From the IMG/VR virus record IMGVR_UViG_2925914267_000002: 28,749 bases of DNA; one strand, 5' to 3'. A program made the position numbers and the translations under genes. This DNA is from a virus. Its lineage: Duplodnaviria > Heunggongvirae > Uroviricota > Caudoviricetes. The notes below the pieces were generated by a model that was given only the letters and a program-made list of their open reading frames with translations, had not been told where the DNA came from and did no database searches. Position 1 is the stretch's first letter; every line of letters begins with the position of its first letter. Shown here one piece after another: positions 20 to 28,749 of this stretch.

Positions 20-1315
20 TTAATTTTTTATTGCTTCGTTATGGGGCATGGTTGGGGCAAACTCGCTTAACTGTGTATTTAACAAAGCTACCTGTGCATT
101 ATTGTTTTCAGACATCCATTTTCCGTATACCTGAAATACCATTTGCGCATCTGCATGGCCCATCTGGTTTGCTATAAATGCCGGGTTAGCACCAGCTGTC
201 AGCGACCAGCAGGCATAAGTATGTCTCGACTGATATGATTTTCGATGGCGGAGTCCGGCACGTTTTATCGCTGCGTCCCACATCTGCCTTATTGAGTCAA
301 CGGTAAAATGGTCACCATAATTTTTTACTCTCGCTGACACTTCAGGTTGAAAAACAAAGGTGCATTTTTGTTTTTCTGTTCTGCCATACTCTCTGAGGTG
401 AACATCAATGATATGCTCTTTACTCAGTCTCGTTAATGTCATCTGACTCCGGAGAGCGTCGATTGCTGGCTTAATAAGATGAATGACCCGATTGGTTCCC
501 GCCTGTGTTTTTGGTACCGTGAAACGGTCTTTTGCTAAATTTCTCCTGATCATCATTGTTCCATTTTTCAGATCTATGTCCTCCCATCCAAGTGCACACA
601 GCTCACCAGGGCGAACGCCAGTATAAACAGAAACACACCATAAATTTTTTGCTTGCTGATTTCTGCACGCATCGATAAGACGGATAAATTCCTCCCGCGA
701 AAGAGGATCCGGAATGGTTCTTGATTCCTTTAATGGCGAGATCCCCTTAAACGGATTATCTGCCAGGTAACCGTTATCAACACCAAACTGGAACACGGCG
801 TTAAGATTTGTCATGTAATTATTTACAGTTACAGCCGATCTCCCTGGTTGTGTAACAATATAGTTGCTTTTGGGGATCTGGTATCCAGTCAGTAGCTCTT
901 TACGAACCTCCAGTAATTTTTCTTTATTAATCGATGAGGCAAGATTTTTTTCACCGATTATGCTCAGGATATTTTTGATGACGGCACGGTATGTGTTGAG
1001 TGATGTTTTGGCGACTTCATTTTCTTTCAGTGCCAGAAATTTTTCAGCCAGTTCTTTTATGGTTAAATCTTGTCGGGCCTCACCAAATTTTTCCAGATTG
1101 CGTGAGGAGGGAAACTGTTTTGCATAGTCGAAAACACCAGTTTTTATTGCGTAACAAACAGAGGAGCGTAGTTCACCTGCAACGCGCCTGTTTTTTGCTG
1201 TGTCAGGAACCCCCAGATTTTCCCTGACTCTTACGCCTTTATAAACAAACCAGATACGTAATTTCCCTCCATGGTTTTCCACGCCTGTCGGATATTTCAT
1301 TTCAACTTCTCTCAT
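20..1315 (-). CDS. Tyrosine-type phage integrase
   Basis: 431-aa ORF with C-terminal catalytic signature (RHRKSYQSRHTYA, GHADAQMVFQVYGKW). Transcribed toward the window edge and followed by an excisionase-like ORF, the usual int-xis layout at a prophage end. Position corresponds to intQ of K-12 Qin (from memory). Confidence 0.9.
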   Translation of the reverse strand: MREVEMKYPTGVENHGGKLRIWFVYKGVRVRENLGVPDTAKNRRVAGELRSSVCYAIKTGVFDYAKQFPSSRNLEKFGEARQDLTIKELAEKFLALKENEVAKTSLNTYRAVIKNILSIIGEKNLASSINKEKLLEVRKELLTGYQIPKSNYIVTQPGRSAVTVNNYMTNLNAVFQFGVDNGYLADNPFKGISPLKESRTIPDPLSREEFIRLIDACRNQQAKNLWCVSVYTGVRPGELCALGWEDIDLKNGTMMIRRNLAKDRFTVPKTQAGTNRVIHLIKPAIDALRSQMTLTRLSKEHIIDVHLREYGRTEKQKCTFVFQPEVSARVKNYGDHFTVDSIRQMWDAAIKRAGLRHRKSYQSRHTYACWSLTAGANPAFIANQMGHADAQMVFQVYGKWMSENNNAQVALLNTQLSEFAPTMPHNEAIKN

Positions 1316-4580: not shown

Positions 4581-4644
4581 TGAGGTAGCCTGAGTTTAAC
4601 GGACACTCCTTCCTGAAATAGAATGGCATCAGAAGGAGCTAATA

Positions 4645-4947
4645 ATGAGCAGAAAAACCCAACGTTACTCTAAAGAGTTCAAAGCCGAAGCTGTCAGAAC
4701 GGTTCTTGAAAATCAACTTTCGATCAGTGAAGGCGCTTCCCGATTATCTCTTCCTGAAGGCACTTTAGGGCAATGGGTTACCGCCGCCAGAAAAGGGCTC
4801 GGTACTCCTGGTTCCCGCACGGTGGCTGAACTGGAATCTGAAATTCTGCAACTGCGTAAGGCGTTAAATGAAGCTCGCCTTGAGCGAGATATATTAAAAA
4901 AAGCAACAGCGTATTTTGCACAGGAGTCGCTGAAAAATACGCGTTAA
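4645..4947 (+). CDS. IS3-family transposase OrfA (HTH)
   Basis: 100-aa ORF MSRKTQRYSKEFKAEAVRTV... with a leucine-zipper-like C-terminus typical of IS3-family OrfA. Confidence 0.9.
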   Translation: MSRKTQRYSKEFKAEAVRTVLENQLSISEGASRLSLPEGTLGQWVTAARKGLGTPGSRTVAELESEILQLRKALNEARLERDILKKATAYFAQESLKNTR

Positions 4948-4982
4948 TCGAACAATGGCGACAACAATTTCCCATTGAAGCG

Positions 4983-5801: not shown

Positions 5802-5844
5802 AAAAAGAACAAATGGTAGTGTCCGCTATTGCCAGTACACCTCA

Positions 5845-10435: not shown

Positions 10436-10489
10436 TGAACCGCCCCGGAAATCCTGGAGACTAAACTCCCTGAGAAAGAGGTAAACAGG

Positions 10490-10816
10490 ATGACTAAAAA
10501 TACTCGTTTTTCCCCCGAAGTCCGTCAGCGGGCGATTCGTATGGTTCTGGAAAGTCAGGATGAATATGACTCACAGTGGGCGGCAATTTGTTCCATTGCC
10601 CCAAAGATTGGCTGTACGCCGGAGACTCTGCGTGTCTGGGTTCGCCAGCATGAGCGGGATACCGGGGGCGGTGATGGTGGGCTCACCAGTGCTGAACGTC
10701 AGCGTCTGAAAGAGCTGGAACGTGAAAATCGTGAACTGCGCCGCAGTAACGATATCCTTCGCCAGGCTTCCGCTTATTTTGCGAAGGCGGAGTTCGACCG
10801 CCTCTGGAAAAAATGA
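10490..10816 (+). CDS. IS629 transposase OrfA
   Basis: 108-aa [26 protein letters not shown]..., typical IS3-family OrfA. Confidence 0.9.
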
Positions 10817-11703
10817 TGCCACTGCTGGATAAGCTGCGTGAGCAGTACGGGGTCGGACCGGTATGCAGCGAACTGCATATTGCCCCGTCAACGTATTACC
10901 ATTGTCAGCAACAGCGACATCATCCGGATAAACGCAGTGCCCGTGCGCAGCACGACGACTGGCTGAAGAGAGAGATACAGCGCGTATACGATGAAAATCA
11001 TCAGGTGTACGGTGTGCGTAAAGTCTGGCGTCAGTTGTTACGGGAAGGAATCAGGGTAGCCAGATGTACAGTGGCGCGCCTCATGGCGGTTATGGGACTT
11101 GCCGGTGTTCTCCGGGGTAAAAAGGTCCGCACTACCGTCAGCCGGAAAGCCGTTGCCGCAGGCGACCGCGTAAACCGTCAGTTTGTGGCAGAACGACCTG
11201 ACCAGCTGTGGGTGGCTGATTTTACTTACGTCAGCACATGGCAGGGCTTCGTCTATGTGGCGTTTATCATTGATGTGTTTGCCGGATACATCGTGGGGTG
11301 GCGGGTCTCATCGTCTATGGAAACGACATTCGTGCTGGATGCGCTGGAGCAGGCGTTGTGGGCCCGTCGTCCGTCTGGCACCATCCATCACAGCGATAAA
11401 GGCTCTCAGTATGTGTCACTGGCCTATACGGAGCGACTAAAAGAAGCCGGATTACTGGCATCAACAGGGAGTACAGGCGACTCGTATGACAACGCGATGG
11501 CTGAGAGCATCAATGGTCTTTACAAAGCGGAGGTAATACACCGTAAGAGCTGGAAAAACCGTGCAGAAGTGGAACTGGCCACACTAACGTGGGTGGACTG
11601 GTATAACAATCGACGATTGCTGGGAAGGCTGGGCCATACTCCTCCGGCAGAAGCAGAAAAAGCTTATTATGCTTCCATCGGAAACGATGATCTGGCAGCC
11701 TGA
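10813..11703 (+). CDS. IS629 transposase OrfB (DDE domain)
   Basis: 296-aa ORF overlapping orfA (ATGA); DDE-type motifs [25 protein letters not shown]. Confidence 0.9.
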
Positions 11704-11745
11704 GTTCACAGATAAAACACTCTCCAGGAAACCCGGGGCGGTTCA

Positions 11746-13185
11746 AATCAACACGTGGCATGCCGTCATAAAATCTCCATTGAAACCGCAAACCATACCC
11801 TTGATGAAAAACTCTTCATGCCCAAACGGGATGAAGGGATGATTGATGAACATATCGCGAAAAAACGCCTCCGAGATTGGATATTTCATTGTGATCTCAT
11901 CTGTAGCAGGAATAATTTGCCCAGCTACTGCCAACTCATGGTCGATACGCATTCTCGTCATCATTATGGGCCAAATAACTGCCCCATTTGCATCATCAAT
12001 CCCCAATCCTGCGGGTATGTGAGCAAGTGTCATTCCCTCATGATCAATATGTGTTGATCCAAACATCCAAGCTATGCTGTTGGCCTTTTGTTCTATTGCT
12101 TGAGCCTTAAGTCTCTCAATGCTGGTTGGCCGACAGACCAGCATCGCAAGTCTGAAAACCATATCAAACAAATCTCTTCCGACTACCCGACTCTTGGCTT
12201 GATGGACAATCTCACTAATATCTTGAGGGGGAGACTGAAGGATAGACATCTGGTGACGGGATTCGATTTGGTAATCACGCATTTCTTCATACAGCGCAAG
12301 ACGTTCTATTCGGGTTCCTGGAATATTAGCCAGTGCTTCAATAGCATTCTGCATGCAGGCTGCCGAAATCATACCGCCATCTTGGAATTTTGACTCTTCC
12401 AGATGTGTATCGGCAAGAAGCCGCCAGAATTCAAACTGTGTATCTCTGTCACAGCACCTATTCGCAATCGGGATTGCGGTTTTACAGGCATCGACGGCAA
12501 ATGAAAATAATTTTTGAGCCAGATAGTTTTTTGTCAGAAACAGGAGTTCCTGGGCAATAAAAGATGGCTCACTCACTTTACAGTCGATATCGAGTTGCAG
12601 GAGTCGCAGCGGATAAGGTGAATCGCCTTGTTCTCTGGTACGTTCATACTCTGCTAGTAGATGTGCCGAAAGCTGATCAAATTCATCCCTGAAATCAGTA
12701 TTCTTTCGAAAAAAACAACACAGCCTAAGCGCACGCTCTAGGCGTTCTAAAGCACTAACCCACGTCCCTTGCGATGTCATAATAGCTATACTGGACGCAT
12801 AATAAGCACGGACTGCCAGCAAAGGAAAACGGATTCCACCAATTTTACGAACCCAAAGTGTATCAGCAATACGAGCTTGAAGTTCGGGTAGCTCTATCGT
12901 CGGGCAAAATTGAGAAAGTACCTCCAGCGACAACCCGTTAATGTCATCCGGAATTGCAGATCTACCTTGGCTGCTTTGAAAGCACGGACCAAATGGTACC
13001 TGTGGATTTTCGGGACGAAAGTGAAAACCGCAAATATGGGTTAGCAGTCTTATCTCCGCTCTTCCATCACCTAGGCTAGAAAGATACTTTGTGATATCAA
13101 AGCAGGTAACTGGCAGCTTACTCTGGATTAAGGGGGATAAATCAATAGTGTTAAGTTCGTCGAGGCTGATATTAATATCGTCCAT
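11746..13185 (-). pseudogene. N-terminal 480 codons of the IS629-disrupted HEPN-motif gene
   Basis: The 480-aa track ORF ends on a stop codon located inside the IS629 right end (11743-11745), so the native reading frame continues beyond the IS. No NTPase motif seen. Confidence 0.6.
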
Positions 13186-13859
13186 GTCGTCACCTTGATG
13201 ATTTGTTAATGCGGGGGCAACATTAATAAATGTACTTGAGACCGCAATTTGTCGATGGAGCCAACATTTATAACTATGTGCTTCTACCCTCTGAATTTTT
13301 ACATGTGAATTGCTAGCTTGAATAGCTCTATCATTATATACGTGGCACTAAATTATGGCTGTTTTTCGCTCAAAGCGGACTAGAAGGTTAGCTTGTGTCG
13401 GACTTTGCGTATTAAAAGAAGTGCTGGTGGTGACTAGTGGTTGTGCCCCATTTCCACAGAAAAAATCAGAGAAACTATACCCAATAGTTGTATTGAATCA
13501 CTGACGAGACAGCCTCATATTCATCAGGACTGGTCTACGTCCAATACAGGAGGTTGTGGTGCTGGTTCTCAAATGTGCGCTGGCTATTACGGCTGTAATG
13601 GCGATTTATTGTCTTGCTATTGTTCTTATGGATCGCCTTTCTGACTGATTTCATATTGGCGAGGTAACGGTAGTTAAGTAGAATGGCTGCGGGTGCTTGA
13701 GGCTATCTGCCTCGGGCATGAACACCAAAGGCAGATAGAGAAAAGCCCCAGTTAACATTACGCGTCCTGCAAGACGCTTAACATTAATCTGAGGCCAATT
13801 TCATGCTAGACACATGTAGGTTAGCCTCTTACGTGCCGAAAGGCAAGGAGAAGCAGGCT

Positions 13860-14015
13860 ATGAAGCAGCAAAAGGCGATGTTAATCGCCCTGATCGTCAT
13901 CTGTTTAACCGTCATAGTGACGGCACTGGTAACGAGGAAAGACCTCTGCGAGGTACGAATCCGAACCGGCCAGACGGAGGTCGCTGTCTTCACAGCTTAC
14001 GAACCTGAGGAGTAA
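13860..14015 (+). CDS. hokD: Hok-family type I toxin (HokD/RelF-like)
   Basis: 51-aa product MKQQKAMLIALIVICLTVIVTALVTRKDLCEVRIRTGQTEVAVFTAYEPEE from ATG 13860 (RBS AAGGAGAA); single TM helix; matches HokD/RelF as I recall it. An in-frame ATG at 13803 extends the frame by 19 codons. Confidence 0.9.
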   Translation: MKQQKAMLIALIVICLTVIVTALVTRKDLCEVRIRTGQTEVAVFTAYEPEE

Positions 14016-14083
14016 GAGACCCGGCGAGGGAGAAATCCCTCGCCACCTCTGATGTGGCAGGCATCCTCAACGCACCCGCACTT

Positions 14084-14114
14084 AACCCGCTTCGGCGGGT
14101 TTTTGTTTTTATTT
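14084..14114 (+). terminator. Rho-independent terminator at the 3' end of the hok transcript
   Basis: CCCGC-TTCG-GCGGG hairpin followed by TTTTTGTTTTTATTTT. A second hairpin (CGAGGGAGAAATCCCTCG, about 14030-14048) lies just downstream of the hok stop. Confidence 0.6.
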
Positions 14115-14231
14115 TCAACGCGTTTGAAGATCTGGACGGTGCCGGAATAGAATCAAAAATACTTAAGTAGCGCGCAGGGATAAGAGGGATGGTCCCTTAA
14201 AGGGGAGAGCTAATTATCCGGAAGGATTCTG

Positions 14232-14483
14232 ATGATGAACATCGAAGAACTGCGTAAAATTTTTTGTGAAGATGGCCTCTATGCTGTGTGCGTTGAAAAT
14301 GGAAATCTTGTTAGTCATTACCGCATTATGTGTTTGCGAAAGAATGGGGCTGCGTTAATTAATTTTGTGGATGGTCGAGTGACAGACAGATTTATCTTGC
14401 GCGAAGGTGAGTTTGTCACTTCATTACAGGCACTGAAAGAGATCGGAATAAAAGCAGGCTTTTCAGCTTTTGCAGAAGAATAA
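14232..14483 (+). CDS. rem: Rem-like prophage protein
   Basis: 83-aa ORF MMNIEELRKIFCEDGLYAV... located directly after hokD as in K-12 Qin (rem-hokD neighbourhood, from memory). Confidence 0.6.
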   Translation: MMNIEELRKIFCEDGLYAVCVENGNLVSHYRIMCLRKNGAALINFVDGRVTDRFILREGEFVTSLQALKEIGIKAGFSAFAEE

Positions 14484-14549
14484 ACTCATCTACAATCTTG
14501 CGCGGGGCTGAACTCCCGCTGAGTAACACCGTGCCACCGGAGAAAACCG

Positions 14550-14828
14550 ATGGCACGCAACGTAAAATATTACAATTCTGATAATTCGCCCGTTCTTGCC
14601 TGCACGCACGAGCGGTATTCTCACGCATTCAAGTCTGAATGGTTCCAACACCCTCCATGCACTGAAGAGCAGGCTGAATGGATAATTCAGTGTTACCGCA
14701 GGCGCGGATACGAGGTTAAGAAAGCCCTTAGTCTCGACTACCGTCACTGGATAATCTCAGTCAGATTGCCTTACTCCGAACGCCCACCACGTGCGTCCCG
14801 CACTTTCCAGCAACGGATCTGGAGGTAA
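14550..14828 (+). CDS. Hypothetical protein, translationally coupled to ydfU
   Basis: 92-aa ORF with RBS GGAGAAAACCG before the ATG. Its stop TAA (14826-14828) sits between the ydfU RBS GGAGG and the ydfU GTG start at 14830. Confidence 0.5.
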   Translation: MARNVKYYNSDNSPVLACTHERYSHAFKSEWFQHPPCTEEQAEWIIQCYRRRGYEVKKALSLDYRHWIISVRLPYSERPPRASRTFQQRIWR

Positions 14829-14829
14829 C

Positions 14830-15879
14830 GTGCGGGTATTACTTAGACCTGTTCTGGTGCCTGAGCTTGGGCTGGTGGTCCTTAAGCCGGGCCGTGAATC
14901 CATACAGATATTTCATAATCCTCGAGTGCTGGTGGAACCGGAACCAAAAAGCATGCGTAATCTGCCATCAGGAGTCGTTCCTGCCGTTGGCCAGCCGCTG
15001 GCGGAAGACAAAACATTGCTGCCGTTTTTTAGTAACGAACGGGTGATTCGTGCTGCTGGCGGCGTTGGCTCATTGTCTGACTGGCTATTACGTCATGTTA
15101 CATCCTGCCAGTGGCCTAATGGCGATTACCATCACACTGAAACAGTCATTCACCGTTATGGTACCGGCGCAATGGTGTTGTGTTGGCACTGCGACAACCA
15201 ACTGCGTGACCAGACATCGGAATCACTGGAGCTGCTTGCTCAACAAAATCTGACAGCATGGGTGATTGACGTCATCCGTCACGCAATAAGCGGTACGCAG
15301 GAGCGGGAATTATCTTTGGCTGAATTATCCTGGTGGGCGGTCTGCAATCAGGTGGTGGATGCACTACCTGAGGCTGTATCGCGTCGTTCGCTGGGATTAC
15401 CAGCGGAAAAAATCTGCTCGGTGTACCGCGAAAGCGACATCGTACCGGGAGAGCAGACCGCCACCAGCATATTGAAACAACGCTCAAAAAATCTTGCACC
15501 GTTGCCTTACGCCCACCAGCAACAAAAACTACCACAGGAAAAGACGGTGGTAAGCATCACCGTTGATCCAGAGTCTCCGGAATCTTTCATGAAGCTGCCT
15601 AAACGTCGCCGCTGGGTTAAGGAGAAATACACACGTTGGGTTAAGACACAGCCGTGTGCTTGCTGCGGTATGCCAGCCGACGATCCGCATCATCTGATTG
15701 GTCACGGGCAGGGCGGAATGGGAACAAAAGCACATGATCTCTTTGTGTTGCCTTTGTGCAGAAAGCATCACAACGAGCTGCATACGGATACAGTGGCATT
15801 TGAAGAGAAGTATGGCTCCCAACTGGAGCTGATATTTCGTTTTATCGATCGCGCGCTGGCAATTGGCGTACTGGCGTAA
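14830..15879 (+). CDS. ydfU: YdfU-like (DUF968-type) protein with C-terminal HNH-like Cys/His motif
   Basis: 349 aa from GTG 14830 (track ORF begins 13 codons upstream at an ATG lacking an RBS). C-terminus CACCGMPADDPHHLIGHGQGG...CRKHHNELH. Confidence 0.7.
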   Translation: MRVLLRPVLVPELGLVVLKPGRESIQIFHNPRVLVEPEPKSMRNLPSGVVPAVGQPLAEDKTLLPFFSNERVIRAAGGVGSLSDWLLRHVTSCQWPNGDYHHTETVIHRYGTGAMVLCWHCDNQLRDQTSESLELLAQQNLTAWVIDVIRHAISGTQERELSLAELSWWAVCNQVVDALPEAVSRRSLGLPAEKICSVYRESDIVPGEQTATSILKQRSKNLAPLPYAHQQQKLPQEKTVVSITVDPESPESFMKLPKRRRWVKEKYTRWVKTQPCACCGMPADDPHHLIGHGQGGMGTKAHDLFVLPLCRKHHNELHTDTVAFEEKYGSQLELIFRFIDRALAIGVLA

Positions 15880-15892
15880 GTGGAGAACGAGC

Positions 15893-16645
15893 ATGAACCT
15901 TGAAGCCTTACCAAAATATTACTCCCCAAAATCTCCAAAATTGAGCGATGACGCTCCAGCGACAGGCACCGGTTGTTTAACAATTACGGATGTAATGGCA
16001 GCGCAGGGGATGGTGCAGTCGAAAGCACCACTTGGGTTGGCCTTATTTCTGGCAAAAGTTGGTGTTCAGGACCCTCAGTTTGCGATTGAAGGCCTGCTAA
16101 ATTACGCGATGGCACTGGATAACCAGACATTGAACAAATTGAGTGAAGAAATCCGGTTACAGATTATTCCTTACCTCGTGAGTTTTGCCTTTGCTGATTA
16201 CTCCAGGTCTGCGGCAAGTAAGGCTCGCTGTGAGCATTGTTCAGGTACGGGATTTTATAATGTATTGCGCGAAGTGGTGAAACACTACAGACGCGGGGAA
16301 TCTGTAATCAAGGAAGAATGGGTGAAGGAACTATGTCAGCATTGCCATGGTAAGGGCGAAGCCAGCACAGCGTGCAGAGGGTGTAAGGGTAAAGGGATTG
16401 TTCTGGATGAAAAAAGAACCCGGTTTCATGGCGTACCGGTATATAAGATTTGTGGGCGTTGTAATGGAAACCGGTTTAGTCGTTTACCGACCACGCTGGC
16501 ACGACGTCATGTCCAGAAGCTGGTACCAGACCTGACCGATTATCAGTGGTATAAGGGGTATGCGGACGTCATTGGTAAACTGGTAACAAAGTGCTGGCAG
16601 GAAGAAGCATACGCGGAAGCGCAATTGAGGAAGGTGACGAGATAA
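15893..16645 (+). CDS. quuQ: Late-gene antiterminator Q (phage 82/21-type)
   Basis: 250 aa from internal Met (MNLEALPKYYSPKSPK...); Cys-rich zinc-binding region (CEHCSGTG, CQHCHGKG, CRGCKGKG, CGRCNG); followed about 100 bp downstream by a strong terminator, as expected for pR'-tR'. Confidence 0.85.
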   Translation: MNLEALPKYYSPKSPKLSDDAPATGTGCLTITDVMAAQGMVQSKAPLGLALFLAKVGVQDPQFAIEGLLNYAMALDNQTLNKLSEEIRLQIIPYLVSFAFADYSRSAASKARCEHCSGTGFYNVLREVVKHYRRGESVIKEEWVKELCQHCHGKGEASTACRGCKGKGIVLDEKRTRFHGVPVYKICGRCNGNRFSRLPTTLARRHVQKLVPDLTDYQWYKGYADVIGKLVTKCWQEEAYAEAQLRKVTR

Positions 16646-16750
16646 ATGATTTTTGCTGAAGATGGCGACATGATGTTTGCATTTTTCAAAAAATATGGAT
16701 AAAATTTTTTCAACGATGGGCTTTGTATACCCGACGTTAAGAAAAAGTAG

Positions 16751-16780
16751 AAAACCCGCTGATGAGCGGGTTTTGTGCTT
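16751..16780 (+). terminator. Rho-independent terminator downstream of Q (tR'-like)
   Basis: AAAACCCGCT-GATG-AGCGGGTTTTGTGCTTT: 6-bp GC-rich stem, 4-nt loop, T-run. Confidence 0.6.
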
Positions 16781-17066
16781 TAAATGGGGCAATGGTAATG
16801 TTGAATCTCATCCCGGGACTCATGTCTGTTAACTTATTATTTAGCTGGTGACTTGGTTATTTGCCTGATGTTTAAAATGTTTTCTTCCAGTACAATGTCC
16901 CTAAACACAATGAGTCTGCTTATTATATTATTAGCAGAGCTATTACGGCCAAAGTACAGCATAAGCTTTTAAAGCCAATCAACCAGTCATCAAGACAGAC
17001 GGGGTTATTCATAAAAACTCTCCATGTGTGATCCGATGGGGCCTGAAATTAAAGCTTTAATATAGC

Positions 17067-17279
17067 TCATGAAAGGTAAACATTGGCAGCTGAAGGGCCA
17101 CGCAGACCATTTATCCGGCAAAATTCCACGCGTAATCCGGTGGTAATTTCTTCTGCATCGCGGAGATTGAGCGCTGAAACATGAAGCTGGACATCGATAC
17201 GACCATCGGATGGGGTGATAAGACCCTTGCCGCTTTTGCCGTCAAAGGTTTTGACAATTCCTGTCATTTTACGGGACAA
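17067..17279 (-). CDS. cspF: Cold-shock protein CspF (CspF/CspH subfamily)
   Basis: 70-aa [29 protein letters not shown]... with CSD fold signature; divergent from cspB as in K-12 Qin. Confidence 0.8.
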
Positions 17280-17579
17280 AAAAATTCCTTAATACTGATA
17301 ACTTGGCGCACTATACACACGTTCCTGAAGAAAGCTATAGTTTTTTGATGGGGTTGAAGATGGCTGGATGTCTAAAATAAACATTGCTTCATATGTTCAA
17401 CTATGCGTTAATGATTGCGTCGGTTTGAAGAACAGACGATATACGAAGTAGTTTACTAAAGCAGTTCTCATTTCAGGTGTTATTCACTTATTCCTTCTTT
17501 GAGTCTCTCCAATTAAGTACGAAGTCGTTTCTGTTATGCAAACCATTTATGCCGAAAGGCTCAAGTTAAGGAATGTAGA

Positions 17580-17795
17580 ATGTCAAATAAAATGACTGGT
17601 TTAGTAAAATGGTTTAACGCTGATAAAGGTTTCGGCTTTATTTCTCCTGTTGATGGTAGTAAAGATGTGTTTGTGCATTTTTCTGCGATTCAGAATGATA
17701 ATTATCGAACCTTATTTGAAGGTCAAAAGGTTACCTTCTCTATAGAGAGTGGTGCTAAAGGTCCTGCAGCAGCAAATGTCATCATTACTGATTAA
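17580..17795 (+). CDS. cspB: Cold-shock protein CspB
   Basis: 71-aa [74 protein letters not shown]; about 300-nt leader region shared divergently with cspF. Confidence 0.9.
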
Positions 17796-18075
17796 AATTC
17801 ATCGCTCGTCTGTATACGATAACGAAGAAGGCTGATGCCTGAGTAGAGATACGGACAGAGTAGTGAATATTGGATCTCTTTAATAAAAAGTAAGGAGGTC
17901 CAATACATGAAACAATGGCTAGCATATTTGGCAAAATCTTAATCAGGAAAAGTATGCTAACCATTGTGGTGAAGTGCAGGTTTGCTGCATGAATAGTTTT
18001 ACAGCAGAAGCTAACTGCTGGCATGGCAAAACAAAGTGCGTAAGTGGATGACTCCCACAAAAAGCACCACAATCT

Positions 18076-18100
18076 CAAACCCGCTCAGGCGGGTTTTTTA
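18076..18100 (+). terminator. Rho-independent terminator about 280 nt downstream of cspB
   Basis: AAACCCGC-TCAG-GCGGGTTTTTTATT. Confidence 0.55.
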
Positions 18101-18158
18101 TTATCTGCTTTAAATATATTATTAAAATATAAAAAATACTTGTTACTAATAAAATCAA

Positions 18159-18329
18159 TCAGGCTACAGCTTTAAGATTTGTCTGGAATACTTTGTTGCA
18201 ATGAGGGCAGATCAAAAGGGCACCTTTTTGTACTCTTGAAAAACTGTGTTCTGACTCTTGGGTGCAGTTTGGGCAGGAACATTTAACGAGATAATTACGG
18301 CGTGATTTTGAGTTTTTACGTTCTGACAT
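18159..18329 (-). CDS. Small zinc-ribbon protein (56 aa)
   Basis: From internal Met: MSERKNSKSRRNYLVKCSCPNCTQESEHSFSRVQKGALLICPHCNKVFQTNLKAVA with CxC-x2-C ... CxxC. RBS AGGA upstream. Possibly the Qin ynfU-type protein, but I cannot confirm the name. Confidence 0.5.
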   Translation of the reverse strand: MSERKNSKSRRNYLVKCSCPNCTQESEHSFSRVQKGALLICPHCNKVFQTNLKAVA

Positions 18330-18548
18330 AGGCTTTTCCTGTATAAATGGCCGTATACAGTACACTAAATATGAAAACATTTCTCGTATTATTATTTTAT
18401 ATATGACTTTCTTTCAAAATAATTACCCACATTTTTAATGTGTATGTTTTTTTAGCGCCGTTGAGAACAACGTGTGCTGTCAAAACTACCCCGTAGACTC
18501 CGATCTTTTCAAACATATTGCACCATCCGTGTACATCGGGGTGAGGAT

Positions 18549-18764
18549 ATGAAATCAATGGATAAGTTAACAACAGGTGTTGCCTATGGCACATCGGCGG
18601 GTAATGCTGGTTTCTGGGCATTGCAGTTACTCGATAAAGTAACTCCGTCACAGTGGGCTGCAATCGGTGTGCTGGGTAGCCTGGTTTTTGGCCTGCTGAC
18701 GTATCTGACAAATCTTTATTTCAAGATTAAAGAAGACAGGCGTAAGGCTGCGAGAGGAGAGTAA
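18549..18764 (+). CDS. essQ: Class II holin (phage 21 S-like pinholin)
   Basis: 71 aa from internal Met ([71 protein letters not shown]); two TM segments and charged C-terminus. Confidence 0.85.
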
Positions 18765-18768
18765 TCCA

Positions 18769-20102
<1,334 letters not shown>

Positions 20103-20465
20103 GGTAATATTAAATCGGAACATTTACATCGCGGAATGTAAAATTTAAATAAAAAGGACTCTTCCATGAGCCAAAATTCCTGAAATCTTAAGGGTAAGAT
20201 AAAAGGTCTTAATCAGAATGACACGTTTTATTAATAAATAAAGCTATTCTTTCATTGCTGTGTTTTTCTTTACAAAAGTAATCCTTGCTATGGGTGGTTA
20301 ATCATGCGTTAATGGTGTTCTGGTTTGTTACAAATTTATCTGAAGCAGTCATTGTTATAATTTTATTATTTGTACCTCTTGAGATTTCCTTGTTGGTTTT
20401 TCTCTCTGATATTTTTTTTTCGGACCATTCTGCCCAAGGGCTAATTTCTTCAAAAGGTAATAATT

Positions 20466-20678
20466 ATGTCTAACAAAATGACTGGTTTAGTGAAATGGTT
20501 TAACCCTGAAAAAGGTTTTGGTTTCATCACGCCGAAAGATGGCAGCAAAGATGTGTTTGTCCATTTCTCAGCAATTCAGAGCAACGATTTCAAAACATTA
20601 ACTGAGAATCAGGAAGTTGAATTTGGTATTGAGAACGGACCTAAAGGTCCTGCCGCTGTTCATGTAGTGGCGCTTTGA
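20466..20678 (+). CDS. cspI: Cold-shock protein CspI
   Basis: 70-aa [73 protein letters not shown]; long leader (20103-20465). Confidence 0.9.
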
Positions 20679-20711
20679 GGTAGACAATATTACAAACCAT
20701 ATTCACTTTAG

Positions 20712-20877
20712 ATGCCCGTGTTGTCATGGTTCCCAGTATAGAACATCATCTTTTGATGTTTCTGACATGAATCCTTTCGGGGCAAAATGTATCTTTTGTA
20801 AATCAATGATGATTACATTTGATAATATTTCACAATACTTAAATGCCAGCCGTCTGTCGTTGGATTTGAAAAAGTGA
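20712..20877 (+). pseudogene. Small Cys-rich zinc-ribbon ORF with an apparent +1 frameshift directly after its ATG
   Basis: Frame starting at 20713 reads CPCCHGSQYRTSSFDVSDMNPFGAKCIFCKSMMITFDNISQYLNASRLSLDLKK-stop, but ATG 20712 is one nucleotide out of frame (C3 run 20715-20717). Only ATG 20767 (36 aa) is in frame. Confidence 0.4.
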
Positions 20878-20883
20878 AAATGA

Positions 20884-20907
20884 AGGCTCCTTCGGGAGCT
20901 TTTTTGC
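20884..20907 (+). terminator. Rho-independent terminator after the cspI region
   Basis: GCTCC-TTCG-GGAGC followed by TTTTTTG. Confidence 0.5.
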
Positions 20908-20949
20908 TTGGTGTCTATTCGATGGATACTCACATACTACGGTAACATC

Positions 20950-21167
20950 ATGAAAAAAATCATAGTTTTTTTTAACTCTGAACCAGCAGTGGTAGTGCCA
21001 GCGATGACTGGAGTTAACACCATCATGCGTGAATATCCAAATGGCGAAAAAACACACCTTACTGTAATGGCCGCAGGGTTTCCATCTCTGACCGGAGATC
21101 ATAAAGTCATTTATGTAGCCGCGGATCGACATGTTACTTCAGAAGAAATTCTGGAAGCAGCAATAAG
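20950..21167 (+). pseudogene. Hypothetical prophage gene, 3'-truncated by IS1 (possibly YdfO/DUF1398-like)
   Basis: ORF MKKIIVFFNSEPAVVVPAMTGVNTIMREYPNGEK... runs into the IS1 terminal repeat; its last 7 codons and stop are IS1-encoded. Confidence 0.45.
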
Positions 21168-21182
21168 GGTAATGACTCCAAC

Positions 21183-21686
21183 TTATTGATAGTGTTTTAT
21201 GTTCAGATAATGCCCGATGACTTTGTCATGCAGCTCCACCGATTTTGAGAACGACAGCGACTTCCGTCCCAGCCGTGCCAGGTGCTGCCTCAGATTCAGG
21301 TTATGCCGCTCAATTCGCTGCGTATATCGCTTGCTGATTACGTGCAGCTTTCCCTTCAGGCGGGATTCATACAGCGGCCAGCCATCCGTCATCCATATCA
21401 CCACGTCAAAGGGTGACAGCAGGCTCATAAGACGCCCCAGCGTCGCCATAGTGCGTTCACCGAATACGTGCGCAACAACCGTCTTCCGGAGCCTGTCATA
21501 CGCGTAAAACAGCCAGCGCTGGCGCGATTTAGCCCCGACGTATCCCCACTGTTCGTCCATTTCCGCGCAGACGATGACGTCACTGCCCGGCTGTATGCGC
21601 GAGGTTACCGACTGCGGCCTGAGTTTTTTAAGTGACGTAAAATCGTGTTGAGGCCAACGCCCATAATGCGGGCAGTTGCCCGGCAT
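21183..21686 (-). CDS. insB: IS1 InsB (transposase catalytic part, made as InsAB' by frameshift)
   Basis: 167-aa [19 protein letters not shown]... overlapping insA. Confidence 0.95.
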
Positions 21687-21880
21687 CCAACGCCATTCAT
21701 GGCCATATCAATGATTTTCTGGTGCGTACCGGGTTGAGAAGCGGTGTAAGTGAACTGCAGTTGCCATGTTTTACGGCAGTGAGAGCAGAGATAGCGCTGA
21801 TGTCCGGCGGTGCTTTTGCCGTTACGCACCACCCCGTCAGTAGCTGAACAGGAGGGACAGCTGATAGAAACAGAAGCCAC
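21605..21880 (-). CDS. insA: IS1 InsA
   Basis: 91-aa zinc-finger/HTH protein [40 protein letters not shown]... Confidence 0.95.
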
Positions 21881-21935
21881 TGGAGCACCTCAAAAACACC
21901 ATCATACACTAAATCAGTAAGTTGGCAGCATCACC

Positions 21936-22807
21936 CGGATGGTGGCGTTCCCTGGAATGCCGAATCAGGCGCTTACAATGTCACCCGCTCTGGCAACAGC
22001 TATATTCTGGTTAACTTCTATACCGGAGTCGGAAGTTGCCGGACATTGCAGATGAAGGCGCATTACAGAAATGGAGGTCTGTTCTACCGTTCCTCAAGAG
22101 ATGGCTATGGTTTTGAGGAAGACTGGGCAGAAGTTTATACCTCGAAAAATCTTCCACCAGAAAGCTACCCAGTCGGTGCACCAATCCCGTGGCCATCAGA
22201 TACCGTTCCGTCTGGTTATGCCCTGATGCAGGGGCAGACTTTTGACAAATCTGCTTACCCGAAACTTGCAGCCGCTTATCCGTCAGGCGTGATCCCTGAT
22301 ATGCGTGGCTGGACGATTAAGGGCAAACCTGCCAGTGGTCGGGCCGTATTGTCTCAGGAACAGGACGGCATTAAATCGCACACCCACAGCGCCAGCGCAT
22401 CCAGTACGGATTTGGGGACGAAAACCACATCGTCGTTTGATTACGGCACTAAATCCACGAATAACACCGGGGCGCATACCCATAGTGTTAGCGGTACGGC
22501 TGCTTCAGCCGGTGCACATACCCATTCGATAACATTTGTTTCAGGTGGCACCAAAGGTGCTCCGGGAAGTGGATCACCTGATTATTCTAAATACAGTGTT
22601 AACACTTCTTCTGCAGGCGCTCATACGCACTCTGTATCGGGTACTGCTGCAAGCGCAGGTGCACACGCACATACTGTAGGTATTGGTGCGCATACGCACT
22701 CGGTTGCGATTGGTTCACATGGACACACCATCACCGTTAACGCTGCTGGTAACGCGGAAAACACCGTCAAAAACATCGCATTTAACTATATTGTGAGGCT
22801 TGCATAA
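21936..22807 (+). pseudogene. stfQ: Side tail fibre gene, 3' fragment (about 290 codons), 5' part deleted at the IS1 junction
   Basis: Open frame begins at the first base after IS1 (…[30 protein letters not shown]…) and contains GAHTHS-type His-rich repeats typical of lambdoid Stf C-termini. No start codon or RBS for the upstream portion. Confidence 0.85.
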
Positions 22808-23382
22808 TGGCATTCAGAATGAGTGAACAACCACGGACCATAAAAATTTATAATCTGCTGGCCGGAACTAATGAATTTATTGGTGAAGGTGATGCATATA
22901 TTCCGCCTCATACAGGTCTGCCAGCAAACAGTACCGATATTGCACCGCCAGATATTCCGGCTGGCTTCGTGGCTGTTTTCAACAGTGATGAGTCATCGTG
23001 GCATCTCGTTGAAGATCATCGGGGTAAAACGGTTTATGACGTGGCTTCCGGCGACGCGTTATTTATTTCTGAACTCGGTCCGTTACCGGAAAATGTTACC
23101 TGGTTATCGCCGGAAGGGGAGTTTCAGAAGTGGAACGGCACAGCCTGGGTGAAGGATACGGAAGCAGAAAAACTGTTCCGGATCCGGGAGGCGGAAGAAA
23201 CAAAAAACAACCTGATGCAGGTAGCCAGTGAGCATATTGCGCCGCTTCAGGATGCTGCAGATCTGGAAATCGCAACGGAGGAAGAAATCTCGTTGCTGGA
23301 AGCATGGAAAAAGTATCGGGTATTGCTGAACCGTGTTGATACGTCAACTGCACAGGATATTGAATGGCCAGCACTGCCGTAG
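22807..23382 (+). CDS. tfaQ: Tail fibre assembly protein (Tfa)
   Basis: 191-aa ORF; start overlaps the stf stop (TAATG); Tfa-like sequence and position. Confidence 0.85.
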
Positions 23383-23479
23383 GGTAAAACATATAAATTC
23401 TATAATTAGATGTATCTTTCCATTTACGGCAAGGAAGGGGGCTTGGAAGACGTAAAGCATCTCACACCGAGATTATTTT

Positions 23480-24070
23480 TTATATGTCAGGTGTCTGAAG
23501 TTTTGCTTTGGCTCTTAAAATGGTTTGCCGCGAGGTTTTGAATTCCCGGGCAATGGCACTTATACTTACACCTGACTTAATTCGTTCGAATACCGCCTGT
23601 TTCTGTTCTTCATTTAACACAGGTGGTCGACCAAAACGTTTCCCTGCGCCGCGGGCTCTTACTATCCCGGAATGAGTGCGTTCAAGTAAAAGGTCTCGTT
23701 CAAATTCAGCGACTGCTGAAATTACTTGCATCATCATTTTTCCTGTTGGACTGGTCAGGTCAATGCCCCCCAATGCTAAGCAATGCACTCTGATACCTGT
23801 TTCGGTCAGTTGTTCCACTGTTTTCCTGATATCCATTGCATTACAACCAAGGCGATCCAGTTTTGTCACAATCAATTGATCACCACATTTCAGGCGAGCA
23901 AGCAACCGGTTAAAACCAGGACGCTCACTGGTTGCTGCTGAGCCGCTAATGTGTTCTTCGATTATTTGCTGAGGTTTGATTTTAAAACCTGCACTTTCGA
24001 TTTCCCGGCGTTGATTTTCGGTGGTCTGATCCAGCGTTGATATCCGACAGTAAGCAAAAATTCGAGACAT
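23480..24070 (-). CDS. pinQ: Pin/Gin/Hin-family serine DNA invertase
   Basis: 196-aa ORF with N-terminal catalytic motif YCRISTLDQ (active-site Ser) and C-terminal HTH ([20 protein letters not shown]); adjacent to stf and tfa. Confidence 0.9.
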
Positions 24071-24386
24071 AGTGAGACTCTATACGAAATTGGTGTTCAT
24101 ATCATAATGCATCTCAGAAAATAATTATGATTATTTTTGTGCATATTTGTATGTACACGTTCGAAAATAAACGAATGCGTATGCAACCCCGTAATTTTGG
24201 TGAGACCCAAAATCGATTTTGTGAAAAATGGCTTTAACTCGGTTTGTTTTTCGAGTTCCGGGCGGACTCAAGGAAGAAGAATAGTGTTGCGTGTTATTTT
24301 AACCAGATTTCAAGTTGTTTGGTCGTGGAAAAGTGGAGCAAAATGTTGTTAAAGTGGAAAAATGATAAAAAAGTAAGTTTATTATA

Positions 24387-24539
24387 TTACATTTTACCAT
24401 TTAAATTTTGGTTGTCTTTAAGAACTGATATCGCTGTTTGTAATAATTCTTTGTTATCCAGCCATGATTTTTTCTTTATGTTTCCTTCAATGTAATCAAG
24501 CAATGTTCTGGTATTGATAGGTCTTCCCTGTTTTGCTAC
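24387..24539 (-). pseudogene. ydfK: ydfK (cold-shock-induced small protein), C-terminal 51 codons, separated by IS3
   Basis: Reverse complement reads VAKQGRPINTRTLLDYIEGNIKKKSWLDNKELLQTAISVLKDNQNLNGKM-stop; continues from the N-terminal fragment at 25798-25872 across IS3. Confidence 0.8.
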
Positions 24540-24569
24540 TGATCCTACCCACGTAATATGGACACAGGC

Positions 24570-25436
24570 CTAAGCGAGGTTCTTGTTTTCAAATTGTTCC
24601 GGACTGAGGCCGCCACACCAACTGTGCCGCCGCCACCGATTGTAATCACATTCGATATAATTAAACACCGTTGCCCGCATTATTTCCCGGCTGATAAAGT
24701 GTTCTCCATGGATACATTCCACTTTCAGCGAATGAAAGAAGCTTTCCACGCAGGCATTATCGTAGCAGCAACCTTTTGCGCTCATACTTCCACGCAGATT
24801 ATGCCGCTTCAGTTGCGCCTGATAATCTGCTGAACAGTACTGGCCTCCACGGTCCGTGTGAACGATAACGTTCCGGGGCCTCTTACGCCGCCACAGCGCC
24901 ATCTGCAGGGCATCGCAGGCCAGTTGCGCCGTCATGCGTGGCGACATTGACCAGCCAATAACGGCACGTGACCACAGGTCAATGACCACTGCCAGATACA
25001 GCCAGCCTTCATCTGTACGTAAGTACGTGATGTCTCCTGCCCACTTCTGGTTCGGGCCACTGGCGTAAAAATCCTGCTCCAACAGATTTTCTGACACAGG
25101 CAGGCCGTGTGCGCGGTAGCTGACCGGGCTGAACTTCCGGGAGGCCTTTGCCCTCAGTCCCTGACGGCGCAGGCTTGCCGCCACGGTTTTTACGTTAAAG
25201 GGGTAACCCTGAGCACGCAGTTCATCCGTCAGGCGTGGGGCACCGTAACGCTGTTTTGACCGGGTAAAAGCCGCGAGGACAACGCTGTCGCAGTGTTGGC
25301 GGAACTGCTGACGCGTGCTTATCCTTGTCCGCCGCTGACACCACGTATACCAGCCGCTGCGGGCCACCCGGAGCACGCGGCACATTGCTTTGATGCTGAA
25401 CTCAGCCTGATGTTTTTCAATAAAGACATACTTCAT
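24570..25436 (-). CDS. insF: IS3 transposase OrfB (InsF)
   Basis: 288-aa DDE-domain ORF overlapping orfA. Confidence 0.95.
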
Positions 25437-25741
25437 TTCAGGCGCTTCGCGAAGTATGTCGCGGCCTTTTGGAGGATAGCCAGCTCTTCATCCCGTTCTG
25501 CCAGCTGGCGTTTGAGACGTGCAATCTCGGTAGACATCTCCAGTTCACGTTCAGAAGACGTCTGCTGATTTTGCTGTTTACTGCGCCAGTTGTAGAGTTG
25601 TGATTCATACAGGCTGAGTTCACGGGCTGCGGCAGTAACACCGATGCGTTCAGCAAGCTTCAGGGCTTCACTGCGAAATTCAGGCGAATGCTGTTTACGG
25701 GGTTTTTTACTGGTTGATACTGTTTTTGTCATGTGAGTCAC
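25433..25741 (-). CDS. insE: IS3 transposase OrfA (InsE)
   Basis: 102-aa [38 protein letters not shown]... Confidence 0.95.
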
Positions 25742-25797
25742 CTCTGACTGAGAGTTTACTCACTTAGCCGCGTGTCCACTATTGCTGGGTAAGATCA

Positions 25798-25872
25798 TAC
25801 AGCATCCCCTAGGATAATTCTTACTTCAGGAAGCTGCGCAGGGAACCACTTTAGGGTGTCTTTTGATTTCAT
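25798..25872 (-). pseudogene. ydfK: ydfK N-terminal 25 codons, with start codon
   Basis: Reverse complement reads ATG AAA TCA AAA GAC ACC ... = MKSKDTLKWFPAQLPEVRIILGDAV, ending at the IS3 target repeat. Confidence 0.8.
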
Positions 25873-26658
25873 GAAGATATTCCTTAAAATATTATTGATT
25901 TTCATTGCGATATTGTATGTCTGATTCAGGATATGTTGACTTATACATCGGTTTTGTCTGGGTTATTGGATATGCCAATCCCTAATTTTATTAGGGCATG
26001 ACTAAAAATGCTGAATATGATAAGGAGAGATGTGATTATCAGTATGCTGTTCATATAGCCTCGAATTAGTAATGTGTTATATATGATATAGTTGACAATT
26101 TTTATCTTGGGTGTTCTTAAAGTTCGTAGATAAACATTGTCGTTTCAGGTATACAGGAATGCTAACAGGTGGCAGCAAAAATCAGGCGGTTTATGGCGCA
26201 AGCTGAAGCGGCAACTGCAAACTATCTTATGCAGAGACTCTACACGGATTGGGTTTAAAAGTATACATAGATAACAGTTTTTATCTGAAAAAGAAAAATA
26301 TCAAGGTGATATAGCCTATATGCCTTTGATGCGGAGGAATGAATGTGATGGGAGTGATGTATCTGAATAGTTGAAAAACCGCAGACACGCCTTATGCAAG
26401 AACGTGCTGCGGTTGGCTGGTAAATTTTTCGATAGTGTGAGTATTGAATGATTTCCAGCCGTTCTTGATTTTACGCATAAATCCATGAAAAAACTACTTA
26501 TCTGTTGGGGAGTTTTTTTTGGGGCATATATGGGACAGAAATAGGCCCCAGATAGACACTGAGATCGAACTTAGGATGCTTTTTAAAAAATGCAACTATC
26601 TGAAAAAACCTAGAAAACGCCAAGGAAACCACAGGATGGGAAAAAACACCTGTGAATT

Positions 26659-27942
26659 ATGGATTTCCAGTTATATTCGCTCGGCGCAGCGTTAGTGTTT
26701 CATGAAATATTTTTTCCTGAATCATCAACGGCAATGGCGTTAATTCTGGCAATGGGAACCTACGGTGCAGGTTATGTGGCGCGTATTGTCGGAGCATTTA
26801 TTTTCGGCAAAATGGGCGACAGAATAGGGCGTAAAAAAGTGCTCTTTATTACCATCACCATGATGGGGATCTGTACCACCTTAATTGGTGTGTTACCGAC
26901 CTATGCACAGATTGGTGTTTTTGCACCCATCTTGCTGGTGACGTTGCGTATTATTCAGGGGTTGGGTGCAGGTGCGGAAATTTCCGGTGCCGGTACGATG
27001 CTGGCGGAATATGCGCCAAAAGGTAAGCGCGGAATTATCTCCTCATTTGTGGCTATGGGAACTAACTGCGGAACCTTGAGCGCAACGGCAATCTGGGCCT
27101 TTATGTTCTTCATTCTCAGTAAAGAGGAACTGCTGGCGTGGGGATGGCGTATACCGTTCCTGGCGAGCGTTGTCGTGATGGTCTTTGCTATCTGGTTGCG
27201 TATGAATCTGAAAGAAAGCCCGGTCTTTGAGAAGGTTAACGACAGTAACCAACCGACAGCAAAACCTGCACCTGCTGGTAGCATGTTCCAGAGCAAATCC
27301 TTCTGGCTGGCAACAGGGCTGCGTTTTGGTCAGGCGGGTAACTCCGGGTTAATTCAGACTTTCCTTGCAGGCTATTTAGTGCAGACGTTATTGTTTAACA
27401 AAGCAATTCCAACAGATGCATTGATGATCAGTTCGATTCTCGGCTTTATGACCATTCCGTTCCTTGGTTGGTTATCCGATAAAATTGGTCGCCGGATCCC
27501 GTATATTATTATGAATACCTCCGCGATTGTGCTGGCATGGCCAATGCTTTCTATCATTGTAGATAAAAGCTATGCCCCGAGCACCATTATGGTTGCACTG
27601 ATTGTGATTCATAACTGTGCGGTGCTGGGATTATTTGCTCTGGAAAACATTACCATGGCAGAAATGTTCGGCTGTAAAAACCGCTTTACCCGGATGGCTA
27701 TTTCTAAAGAAATTGGTGGTCTTATCGCTTCCGGTTTTGGTCCTATCCTGGCGGGTATTTTCTGCACCATGACGGAATCCTGGTATCCGATCGCCATTAT
27801 GATCATGGCATATTCAGTGATTGGTTTAATCTCTGCGCTGAAAATGCCAGAGGTGAAAGACCGTGATTTAAGTGCGCTGGAAGACGCTGCGGAAGATCAA
27901 CCGCGTGTTGTAAGAGCTGCGCAACCTTCCAGAAGTCTGTAA
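26659..27942 (+). CDS. ydfJ: MFS transporter (metabolite:H+ symporter family), YdfJ-like, apparently N-terminally truncated at the prophage junction
   Basis: 427-aa ORF with MFS motifs (GDRIGRKK after TM2, multiple TM segments) but starting inside the first TM helix (MDFQLYSLGAALVF...). No RBS before the ATG and an in-frame TGA two codons upstream. Confidence 0.8.
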   Translation: MDFQLYSLGAALVFHEIFFPESSTAMALILAMGTYGAGYVARIVGAFIFGKMGDRIGRKKVLFITITMMGICTTLIGVLPTYAQIGVFAPILLVTLRIIQGLGAGAEISGAGTMLAEYAPKGKRGIISSFVAMGTNCGTLSATAIWAFMFFILSKEELLAWGWRIPFLASVVVMVFAIWLRMNLKESPVFEKVNDSNQPTAKPAPAGSMFQSKSFWLATGLRFGQAGNSGLIQTFLAGYLVQTLLFNKAIPTDALMISSILGFMTIPFLGWLSDKIGRRIPYIIMNTSAIVLAWPMLSIIVDKSYAPSTIMVALIVIHNCAVLGLFALENITMAEMFGCKNRFTRMAISKEIGGLIASGFGPILAGIFCTMTESWYPIAIMIMAYSVIGLISALKMPEVKDRDLSALEDAAEDQPRVVRAAQPSRSL

Positions 27943-27951
27943 ACCCTTAAT

Positions 27952-27982
27952 CCCTTCTCTTACCGGAGAGGGGATTTTTATT
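27952..27982 (+). terminator. Rho-independent terminator after the ydfJ-like gene
   Basis: CCCTTCTC-TTACCG-GAGAGGGG hairpin (one G-U pair) followed by ATTTTTATT. Confidence 0.55.
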
Positions 27983-28051
27983 CATATAACAAAACAGGTG
28001 ATGCTGCCAACTTACTGATTTAGTGTATGATGGTGTTTTTGAGGTGCTCCA

Positions 28052-28327
28052 GTGGCTTCTGTTTCTATCAGCTGTCCCTCCTGTTCAGCTACTGACGGGG
28101 TGGTGCGTAACGGCAAAAGCACCGCCGGACATCAGCGCTATCTCTGCTCTCACTGCCGTAAAACATGGCAACTGCAGTTCACTTACACCGCTTCTCAACC
28201 CGGTACGCACCAGAAAATCATTGATATGGCCATGAATGGCGTTGGATGCCGGGCAACTGCCCGCATTATGGGCGTTGGCCTCAACACGATTTTACGTCAC
28301 TTAAAAAACTCAGGCCGCAGTCGGTAA
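28052..28327 (+). CDS. insA: IS1 InsA
   Basis: 91 aa, identical in protein sequence to the insA of the first IS1 copy. Confidence 0.95.
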
Positions 28328-28749
28328 CCTCGCGCATACAGCCGGGCAGTGACGTCATCGTCTGCGCGGAAATGGACGAACAGTGGGGATACGTCGGGGC
28401 TAAATCGCGCCAGCGCTGGCTGTTTTACGCGTATGACAGGCTCCGGAAGACGGTTGTTGCGCACGTATTCGGTGAACGCACTCTGGCCACACTGGAGCGT
28501 CTTCTGAGCCTGCTGTCGGCCTTTGAGGTCGTGGTATGGATGACGGATGGCTGGCCGCTGTATGAATCACGCCTGAAGGGAAAGCTGCACGTTATCAGCA
28601 AGCGTTACACTCAGCGCATTGAGCGACATAATCTGAATCTGAGACAACATCTGGCAAGGCTGGGACGGAAGTCGCTGTCGTTCTCAAAATCGGTGGAGCT
28701 GCATGACAAAGTCATCGGGCATTATCTGAACATAAAACACTATCAATAA
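28246..28749 (+). CDS. insB: IS1 InsB (variant isoform)
   Basis: 167 aa; differs from the first copy at several clustered positions ([20 protein letters not shown] vs [20 protein letters not shown]). Confidence 0.95.

Follow-up and report, generated by a model that had tools for sequence, protein, structure and literature searches.

How does a complete IS1 element come to stand between the end of ynfN and the interior of a side-tail-fibre gene, with two different 9-mers at its ends? The question arises in the window, by which we mean the whole stretch of 28,749 nucleotides that was analysed, and our answer is that a deletion running from one end of the IS1 has probably removed about 23.4 kb of the prophage in which the element lies.

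The prophage and its insertion sequences

Almost the whole of a Qin-like lambdoid prophage lies in the window; its integration site is ydfJ, and its host is an IS-rich E. coli. The window opens with the integrase gene (20..1315, minus strand), followed by genes for a RecE-like exonuclease and a DicA-like repressor. There is ~99.3% identity to K-12 Qin through hokD, rem, ydfU, Q, cspF, cspB, the lysis cassette, cspI, ymcF, ynfR and ynfN, and beyond the IS1 lie, in order, the 3' end of stf, tfaQ, pinQ, ydfK and ydfJ'. Positions 13846-21168 and 21936-27996 align at ~99% to both K-12 Qin and the prophage of E. coli N18-04097, ending in ydfJ' and then ydfI. The order hokD-rem-ydfU-Q-cspF-cspB-lysis-cspI-ynfN ... 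tfaQ-pinQ-ydfK is that of a Qin-like prophage at ydfJ. Within the lysis genes (19077-20102) a 2-bp deletion (GT) at ~19607, relative to the related locus L026, falls at the end of the endolysin gene rrrQ, so that this gene and the spanin gene rzpQ form one in-frame ORF of 341 aa. The same sequence is present in L006, and in the other relatives the two genes are separate, encoding 177 aa and 165 aa.

The IS1 at the junction is a standard, complete, IS1A-like element of 768 bp on the minus strand, occupying 21168-21935, and both of its termini can be read directly. The first-pass annotation had placed it at 21159-21944; the element is indeed there, and that span additionally takes in the 9-mer on each side. 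The IRR end adjoins ynfN and reads GGTAATGACTCC..., or at greater length GGTAATGACTCCAACTTATTGAT, while the IRL end adjoins stf and reads ...GGCAGCATCACC, or at greater length ...ATCAGTAAGTTGGCAGCATCACC. The size of ~768 bp and the imperfect terminal inverted repeats of ~23 bp (GGTGATGCTGCCAACTTACTGAT and GGTAATGACTCCAACTTATTGAT) are those of the IS1 family. Both reading frames are open and intact on the minus strand, insA at 21880..21605 (91 aa) and the insB frame at 21686..21183 (167 aa), and the A6C motif TTAAAAAAC lies on the minus strand within their overlap as the site for a -1 frameshift. The element shares 99.6% identity with an annotated copy of the IS1A family in N18-04097, and 100% with IS1 copies in two further relatives, L027 and L028.

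A simple IS1 insertion leaves a direct duplication of 9 bp (rarely 8 bp) of the target. No such duplication is found here. The left flanking 9-mer AGCAATAAG (21159-21167) and the right flanking 9-mer CGGATGGTG (21936-21944) agree at three of nine positions and are unrelated, which bears out the earlier description of a complete IS1 with differing flanks. The missing duplication bears on the type of insertion and not on membership of the IS1 family. Simple IS1 insertions in sister genomes carry perfect 9-bp duplications (AGGAGGTCC, GAATCGCCT and TGACACGTT), and all three of the IS3-family elements in the window have clean 3-bp duplications (ACG, AAT and TAC). The lack of one at the junction IS1 is therefore meaningful and not noise.

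These three IS3-family elements are an IS600-like element at 4582-5843 (orfA 100 aa, orfB 272 aa; ACG), an IS629-like element at 10436-11745 (108 aa and 296 aa; AAT) and a minus-strand element in ydfK at 24541-25797 (orfA 102 aa, orfB 288 aa; TAC). The IS629-like element cuts short a 595-aa DUF7380/EMARD_N gene (11743..13185, minus strand), leaving 480 aa, and a protein look-up with the truncated ORF returned no public record. The ydfK insertion is common to the window and GCA_020556165.1 and is absent in K-12, N18-04097, L017 and L019; beside it the window lacks the 9 bp TTCCACTAC that are found in N18-04097.

A second IS1 (27997-28749, continuing past the window end) follows the ydfJ' remnant, at a point 35 bp upstream of ydfI. 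A search for matching 9-bp repeats beside other IS1 copies had been suggested, and this element was considered as a reciprocal partner. We rejected it, as it is inverted relative to the first copy, only 97.1% identical to it, and its left 9-mer AACAAAACA matches neither flank. Neither AGCAATAAG nor CGGATGGTG occurs again beside the other IS1 of the window. In CP170291.1 (L028) an IS1 of the other sequence type lies at nearly the same ydfI-side point (ACAAAACATATAG) and is tied to a far larger deletion, joining the region downstream of cspB straight to that upstream of ydfI.

The two flanks and the interval missing between them

On the left the IS1 meets ynfN very near its end. Comparing translations of the window and of the intact gene, as annotated in relatives, we find that native YnfN has 76 aa and ends ...EAAIRLLS*, and that the chimeric ynfN' ORF (20950..21189, plus strand) encodes 79 aa. 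Residues 1-73 are native, and the last six (VMTPTY) together with the stop codon come from the IRR end of the IS1. This agrees with the earlier reading of seven terminal IS1-encoded codons, if the stop is counted, but the truncation that it described is slight: ynfN has lost just three native codons. The 79-aa protein is in public records as 'protein YnfN [Escherichia coli]' on 26 contigs, a label that lends no support to a Shigella origin, which had been considered at first. The left junction is the same in the window, L024, L027 and L006-L015. An exact-pattern scan for it among GTDB species representatives gave no match.

On the right the IS1 adjoins a 3' remnant of stf (21936..22807, plus strand), 872 bp comprising the last ~290 codons. 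It maps to positions 38271-39142 of the N18-04097 locus (L005), where the intact stf is at 36035..39142, so that the flank enters the gene at nt 2237 of 3108. The native context at the breakpoint, ...ATATGCCGATG followed directly by CGGATGGTGGCG, is present in five relatives. The flank had been described as an open frame beginning mid-gene at the first base after the IS1, with no start. There is no ATG, GTG or TTG upstream of the TTG at 22046, and the next ATG is at 22052; the frame itself, however, is open backwards for 30 codons into the IS1. Downstream of the deletion an intact tfaQ-like tail-fibre assembly gene (22807..23382, plus strand) and a pinQ-like serine invertase gene (23480..24070, minus strand) are kept. 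A look-up with the Tfa protein returned 13,191 blocks and is too common to discriminate.

The region of stf around the breakpoint has two further features. In GCA_002518135.1 (L019 1-140) stf adjoins the end of a different, oppositely oriented IS1, 57 bp upstream of where the right junction of the window lies, so this short stretch of stf has been struck by IS1 at least twice independently. In addition, the stf alleles of N18-04097 (L005 ~37521-38261) and of the window's relatives (L016 8891-9874) cannot be aligned over ~0.75-1 kb, with homology returning just 10 bp upstream of the window's IS1 junction. The end-point of the deletion thus falls almost exactly on a boundary of the tail-fibre mosaic.

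At the same ydfJ site N18-04097 has a Qin-like prophage of full length, and aligning the two flanks to it allows the missing interval to be measured. Its genes run from ynfN through gnsB, ydfO, ynfO, nohA, terL, head-tail joining, portal, protease, decoration and capsid to FI, FII, the tail genes, tape measure, M, L, K, I, J, lom, stf (3108 bp), tfaQ and pinQ. The left flank of the window ends at position 14133, 12 bp short of the end of ynfN, and the right flank begins at 38271, with both flanks collinear and on the same strand. The 24,137 bp between them include an unrelated IS1 belonging to N18-04097, and subtracting that element and its duplication leaves ~23.36 kb. The alignments support a loss of ~23.4 kb of virus-particle genes that would have occurred on the IRL side of the ynfN IS1. 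The first-pass annotation had proposed that terminase, head and tail genes were removed together with the 5' part of stf. All of these are gone, including the large terminase subunit, portal, protease and capsid genes, every tail gene, J and lom, and nt 1-2236 of stf. That list was incomplete, however, as gnsB, ydfO, ynfO and nohA have gone too.

Both flanks retain their ancestral order and strand, which excludes an inversion. Derivation from a deleted Qin of the K-12 type is also excluded, as K-12 lacks window positions 21936-22165.

Had the flanks been contiguous in IS-free relatives, the proposal of an IS1-linked deletion would have been overturned. They are joined without an IS in none of 5,426 complete E. 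coli genomes. The full ynfN-IS1-stf' structure is likewise found in none of these, and a search with each junction alone gave no contiguous match in the complete E. coli genomes; apparent junction matches of at least 80% proved to be two separate pieces 115-450 bp apart. Four genomes with an IS1 near ynfN (BS74R-D, N18-04097, CT02 and 7/2) were considered as intermediates and rejected, because their IS1 elements are at other positions. The 251-aa stf' remnant protein occurs on eight contigs, and none of the eight has the window junction. The right junction (IRL with CGGATGGTG) is absent from the 5,426 E. coli genomes, the GTDB representatives, the JGI metagenome contigs and the contigs bearing the stf remnant, and so is known from the window only.

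This uniqueness raises the question of whether the join is real. IS1 is a high-copy repeat in the lineage, and two copies, one in ynfN and one elsewhere, might have been collapsed in assembly, falsely joining ynfN to stf. We consider such an artefact very improbable. The window contains five IS elements with clean junctions, three of them with duplications, which is what a finished or long-read assembly should show. The two sides of the join are collinear and correctly oriented, and the artefact would still require a second direct IS1 at the stf site, which has never been observed.

A relative retaining the deleted genes, and the route of loss

A protein look-up with YdfU led to the locus L024, and one with the stf remnant protein led to L016. 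Both lie on a single 4.89-Mb contig of GCA_020556165.1, a closer relative than N18-04097. Its left junction is identical to that of the window, AGCAATAAG being followed directly by GGTAATGAC (written at greater length, ...GAAGCAGCAATAAG followed by GGTAATGACTCC), with the IS1 in the same orientation. It also has the identical ydfK insertion of the IS3 family, and window positions 21936-27996, this IS included, align to it as one piece. Its IS1 is followed on the right by gnsB, ydfO, nohA and terL, and further on by tape measure, J, lom, a complete stf, tfa and pin. In record coordinates there are 23,430 bp from the IRL end of the IS1 to the CGGATGGTG site in stf. The gap of 10,381 bp between L024 and L016 was assessed by length only, and agrees with the size of the head and tail genes in the intact reference, 10,390 bp. 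Thus GCA_020556165.1 preserves the pre-deletion state. The two flanks of the window are non-adjacent but collinear and on the same strand both here and in N18-04097, ~23.4 kb apart, as an IS1 adjacent deletion would predict. The IS600-like and IS629-like elements of the window are absent from relatives with the ynfN-IS1 junction (L006, L024 and L029), and both must therefore be younger than that junction.

GCA_974498845.1 (L027) has both of its IS1 junctions the same as L024. In these two relatives, too, the IS1 has no duplication; its IRL end adjoins AACAGACTA, and the start codon of gnsB follows 21 bp downstream. The IS-free relative L026 has 163 bp between the ynfN site and AACAGACTA that both of them lack. 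The shared IS1 had already lost its duplication in relatives that still keep the structural genes, and these show an adjacent loss of 163 bp. In IS-free coordinates the IRL flanks of the same IS1 lie 163 bp from the ynfN site in these relatives and 23.6 kb from it in the window. Thus one end of the element, the IRR-ynfN flank, is fixed, while the IRL flank takes at least two forms, AACAGACTA in the two relatives and CGGATGGTG in the window. This is the pattern to be expected of IS1 adjacent deletions. Either AGCAATAAG or AACAGACTA may have been the site of the original insertion, and in both cases the window lineage requires one deletion of ~23.4 kb on the IRL side. Comparable losses linked to IS1 occur in sister genomes: besides the one in CP170291.1, L027 has a further IS1 without a duplication, near dicB.

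IS1-promoted adjacent deletions begin exactly at an IS terminus and run to variable end-points. We consider it likely that the window records such an event, an IS1 adjacent deletion of ~23.4 kb on the IRL side in a Qin-like prophage at ydfJ. The IS1 would have transposed within the same DNA molecule, in a replicative, cointegrate-type reaction, from its IRL end into stf. Such an intramolecular transposition would keep the IS and its other flank, make no target duplication and discard the intervening DNA as a circle. The IRL end is now fused to CGGATGGTG in stf, and the ~23.4 kb would have been lost in a single step.

The same product could be made in another way. If direct copies of IS1 had been present in ynfN and in stf, the latter within a duplication of CGGATGGTG, a RecA crossover between them would delete the interval and one IS. 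The end product is identical to that observed, and sequence alone cannot separate this route from intramolecular transposition. The lineage has many nearly identical IS1 copies, an IS1 has independently entered stf 57 bp away in L019 (though in the opposite orientation), and a deletion following two insertions in this way has been described by Raeside et al. (PMC4173774). Against this, an IS1 at the CGGATGGTG site, the two-copy intermediate, was found in none of the E. coli genomes, GTDB representatives, JGI contigs or stf-remnant contigs. Moreover, the same IS1 is associated with a 163-bp loss on its IRL side in L024 and L027, and repeated one-ended events are the simpler account. We regard recombination between two copies as possible but rather doubtful, and favour the adjacent deletion over it only circumstantially.

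The loss might also have been stepwise, with the structural module largely gone beforehand, by an IS-independent or IS66-linked event, and the IS1 then removing only 2.3-7.3 kb. In L017 and L018 nohA runs directly into stf, at a point 216 bp upstream of the window junction, and W13-16 joins terL' to IS66 and then to 'stf further upstream. The window flanks are 2.3 kb apart in L017 and 7.3 kb apart in W13-16, and are 100% identical to the latter over 1.2 kb and 0.74 kb. These smaller intervals make an earlier loss conceivable. However, types such as L017 and W13-16 have neither the ynfN IS1 junction nor the IS3-family insertion in ydfK, which makes them unlikely ancestors, and GCA_020556165.1, which has both markers in common with the window, retains the full 23.4 kb. 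A stepwise loss is thus improbable, and we retain an IS1 adjacent deletion in one step as the likely event.

Loss of the structural region in this and other Qin prophages

The classical case is that of the IS1 adjacent deletions at gal and chl, which Reif and Saedler reportedly described, with IS1 said to act by intramolecular replicative transposition. The window resembles these in that an IS1 is kept at the junction, the deletion starts from the exact IS1 terminus and there is no 9-bp duplication; in the window lineage, too, one flank is constant and the other varies among relatives. It differs in that the event is deduced by comparative genomics and was not obtained by laboratory selection, but nothing essential differs.

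K-12 Qin (nohA-'stfQ-tfaQ-pinQ) shares with the window the ydfJ site, the absence of the structural module, and, at ~99.3% identity, the gene order from hokD through cspI, ynfN and tfaQ-pinQ-ydfK to ydfJ'. The two differ in how the genes were lost. K-12 Qin has an IS-free join from within nohA/terL to stf and keeps gnsB, ydfO, ynfO and nohA, whereas in the window the deletion begins in ynfN and is linked to IS1; upstream of hokD the early regions differ as well. The K-12 stf remnant starts at the equivalent of window position 22166 and is 230 bp shorter than that of the window. Since these 230 bp are present in the window, the K-12 deletion must be a separate event.

Deletions of the Qin module without an IS are found in at least four other architectures (L017, L018, L020, L021, L003 and L002), which have one exact left breakpoint, at the 3' end of nohA (N18-04097 locus ~17016), after ...GCGCTGGATGAACTGATA and 14 bp before the terL start. 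The right partners differ (two stf sites, a lom fragment and a J fragment), and the joins have microhomology of only 2-7 bp. K-12 breaks 21 bp beyond this shared point. Here too a fixed end is combined with variable partners, in this case without an IS.

In the long-term evolution experiment with E. coli B, Raeside et al. 2014 (PMC4173774) observed IS-mediated deletions in which remnants of prophages made up far more of the lost DNA than their share, and a Qin-like locus was deleted in 6 of 12 populations. Those were laboratory events in REL606 with other end-points, unlike the window, which comes from a natural isolate lineage.

The many independent architectures of Qin structural-module deletion in public genomes show that loss of this region is clearly recurrent. 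It might be proposed further that this IS1 copy, and the Qin structural region generally, constitute a recurrent and selectively favoured generator of deletions, but we think this unlikely. If it were true, nested one-ended deletions would disarm the prophage again and again but leave the cold-shock, lysis, tfa and pin genes in place, and the many independent Qin deletions, several of them IS-free with one exact breakpoint in nohA in common, would amount to parallel domestication and not to neutral decay.

The prophage of the window can no longer make particles, and it still keeps its immunity, lysis, cold-shock and tfa-pin genes. IS1-linked deletion, and its tendency to remove prophage DNA, are already known and belong to the textbook; this is an ordinary way for bacteria to erode their resident prophages. 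The finding explains why this Qin-like prophage is defective, with little import beyond its annotation, and the stf fragment and slightly altered ynfN are by-products of an IS1 event. The locus provides a clean natural example of how IS1 erodes a prophage in an IS-rich lineage of E. coli, and a relative still preserves the state before the deletion.
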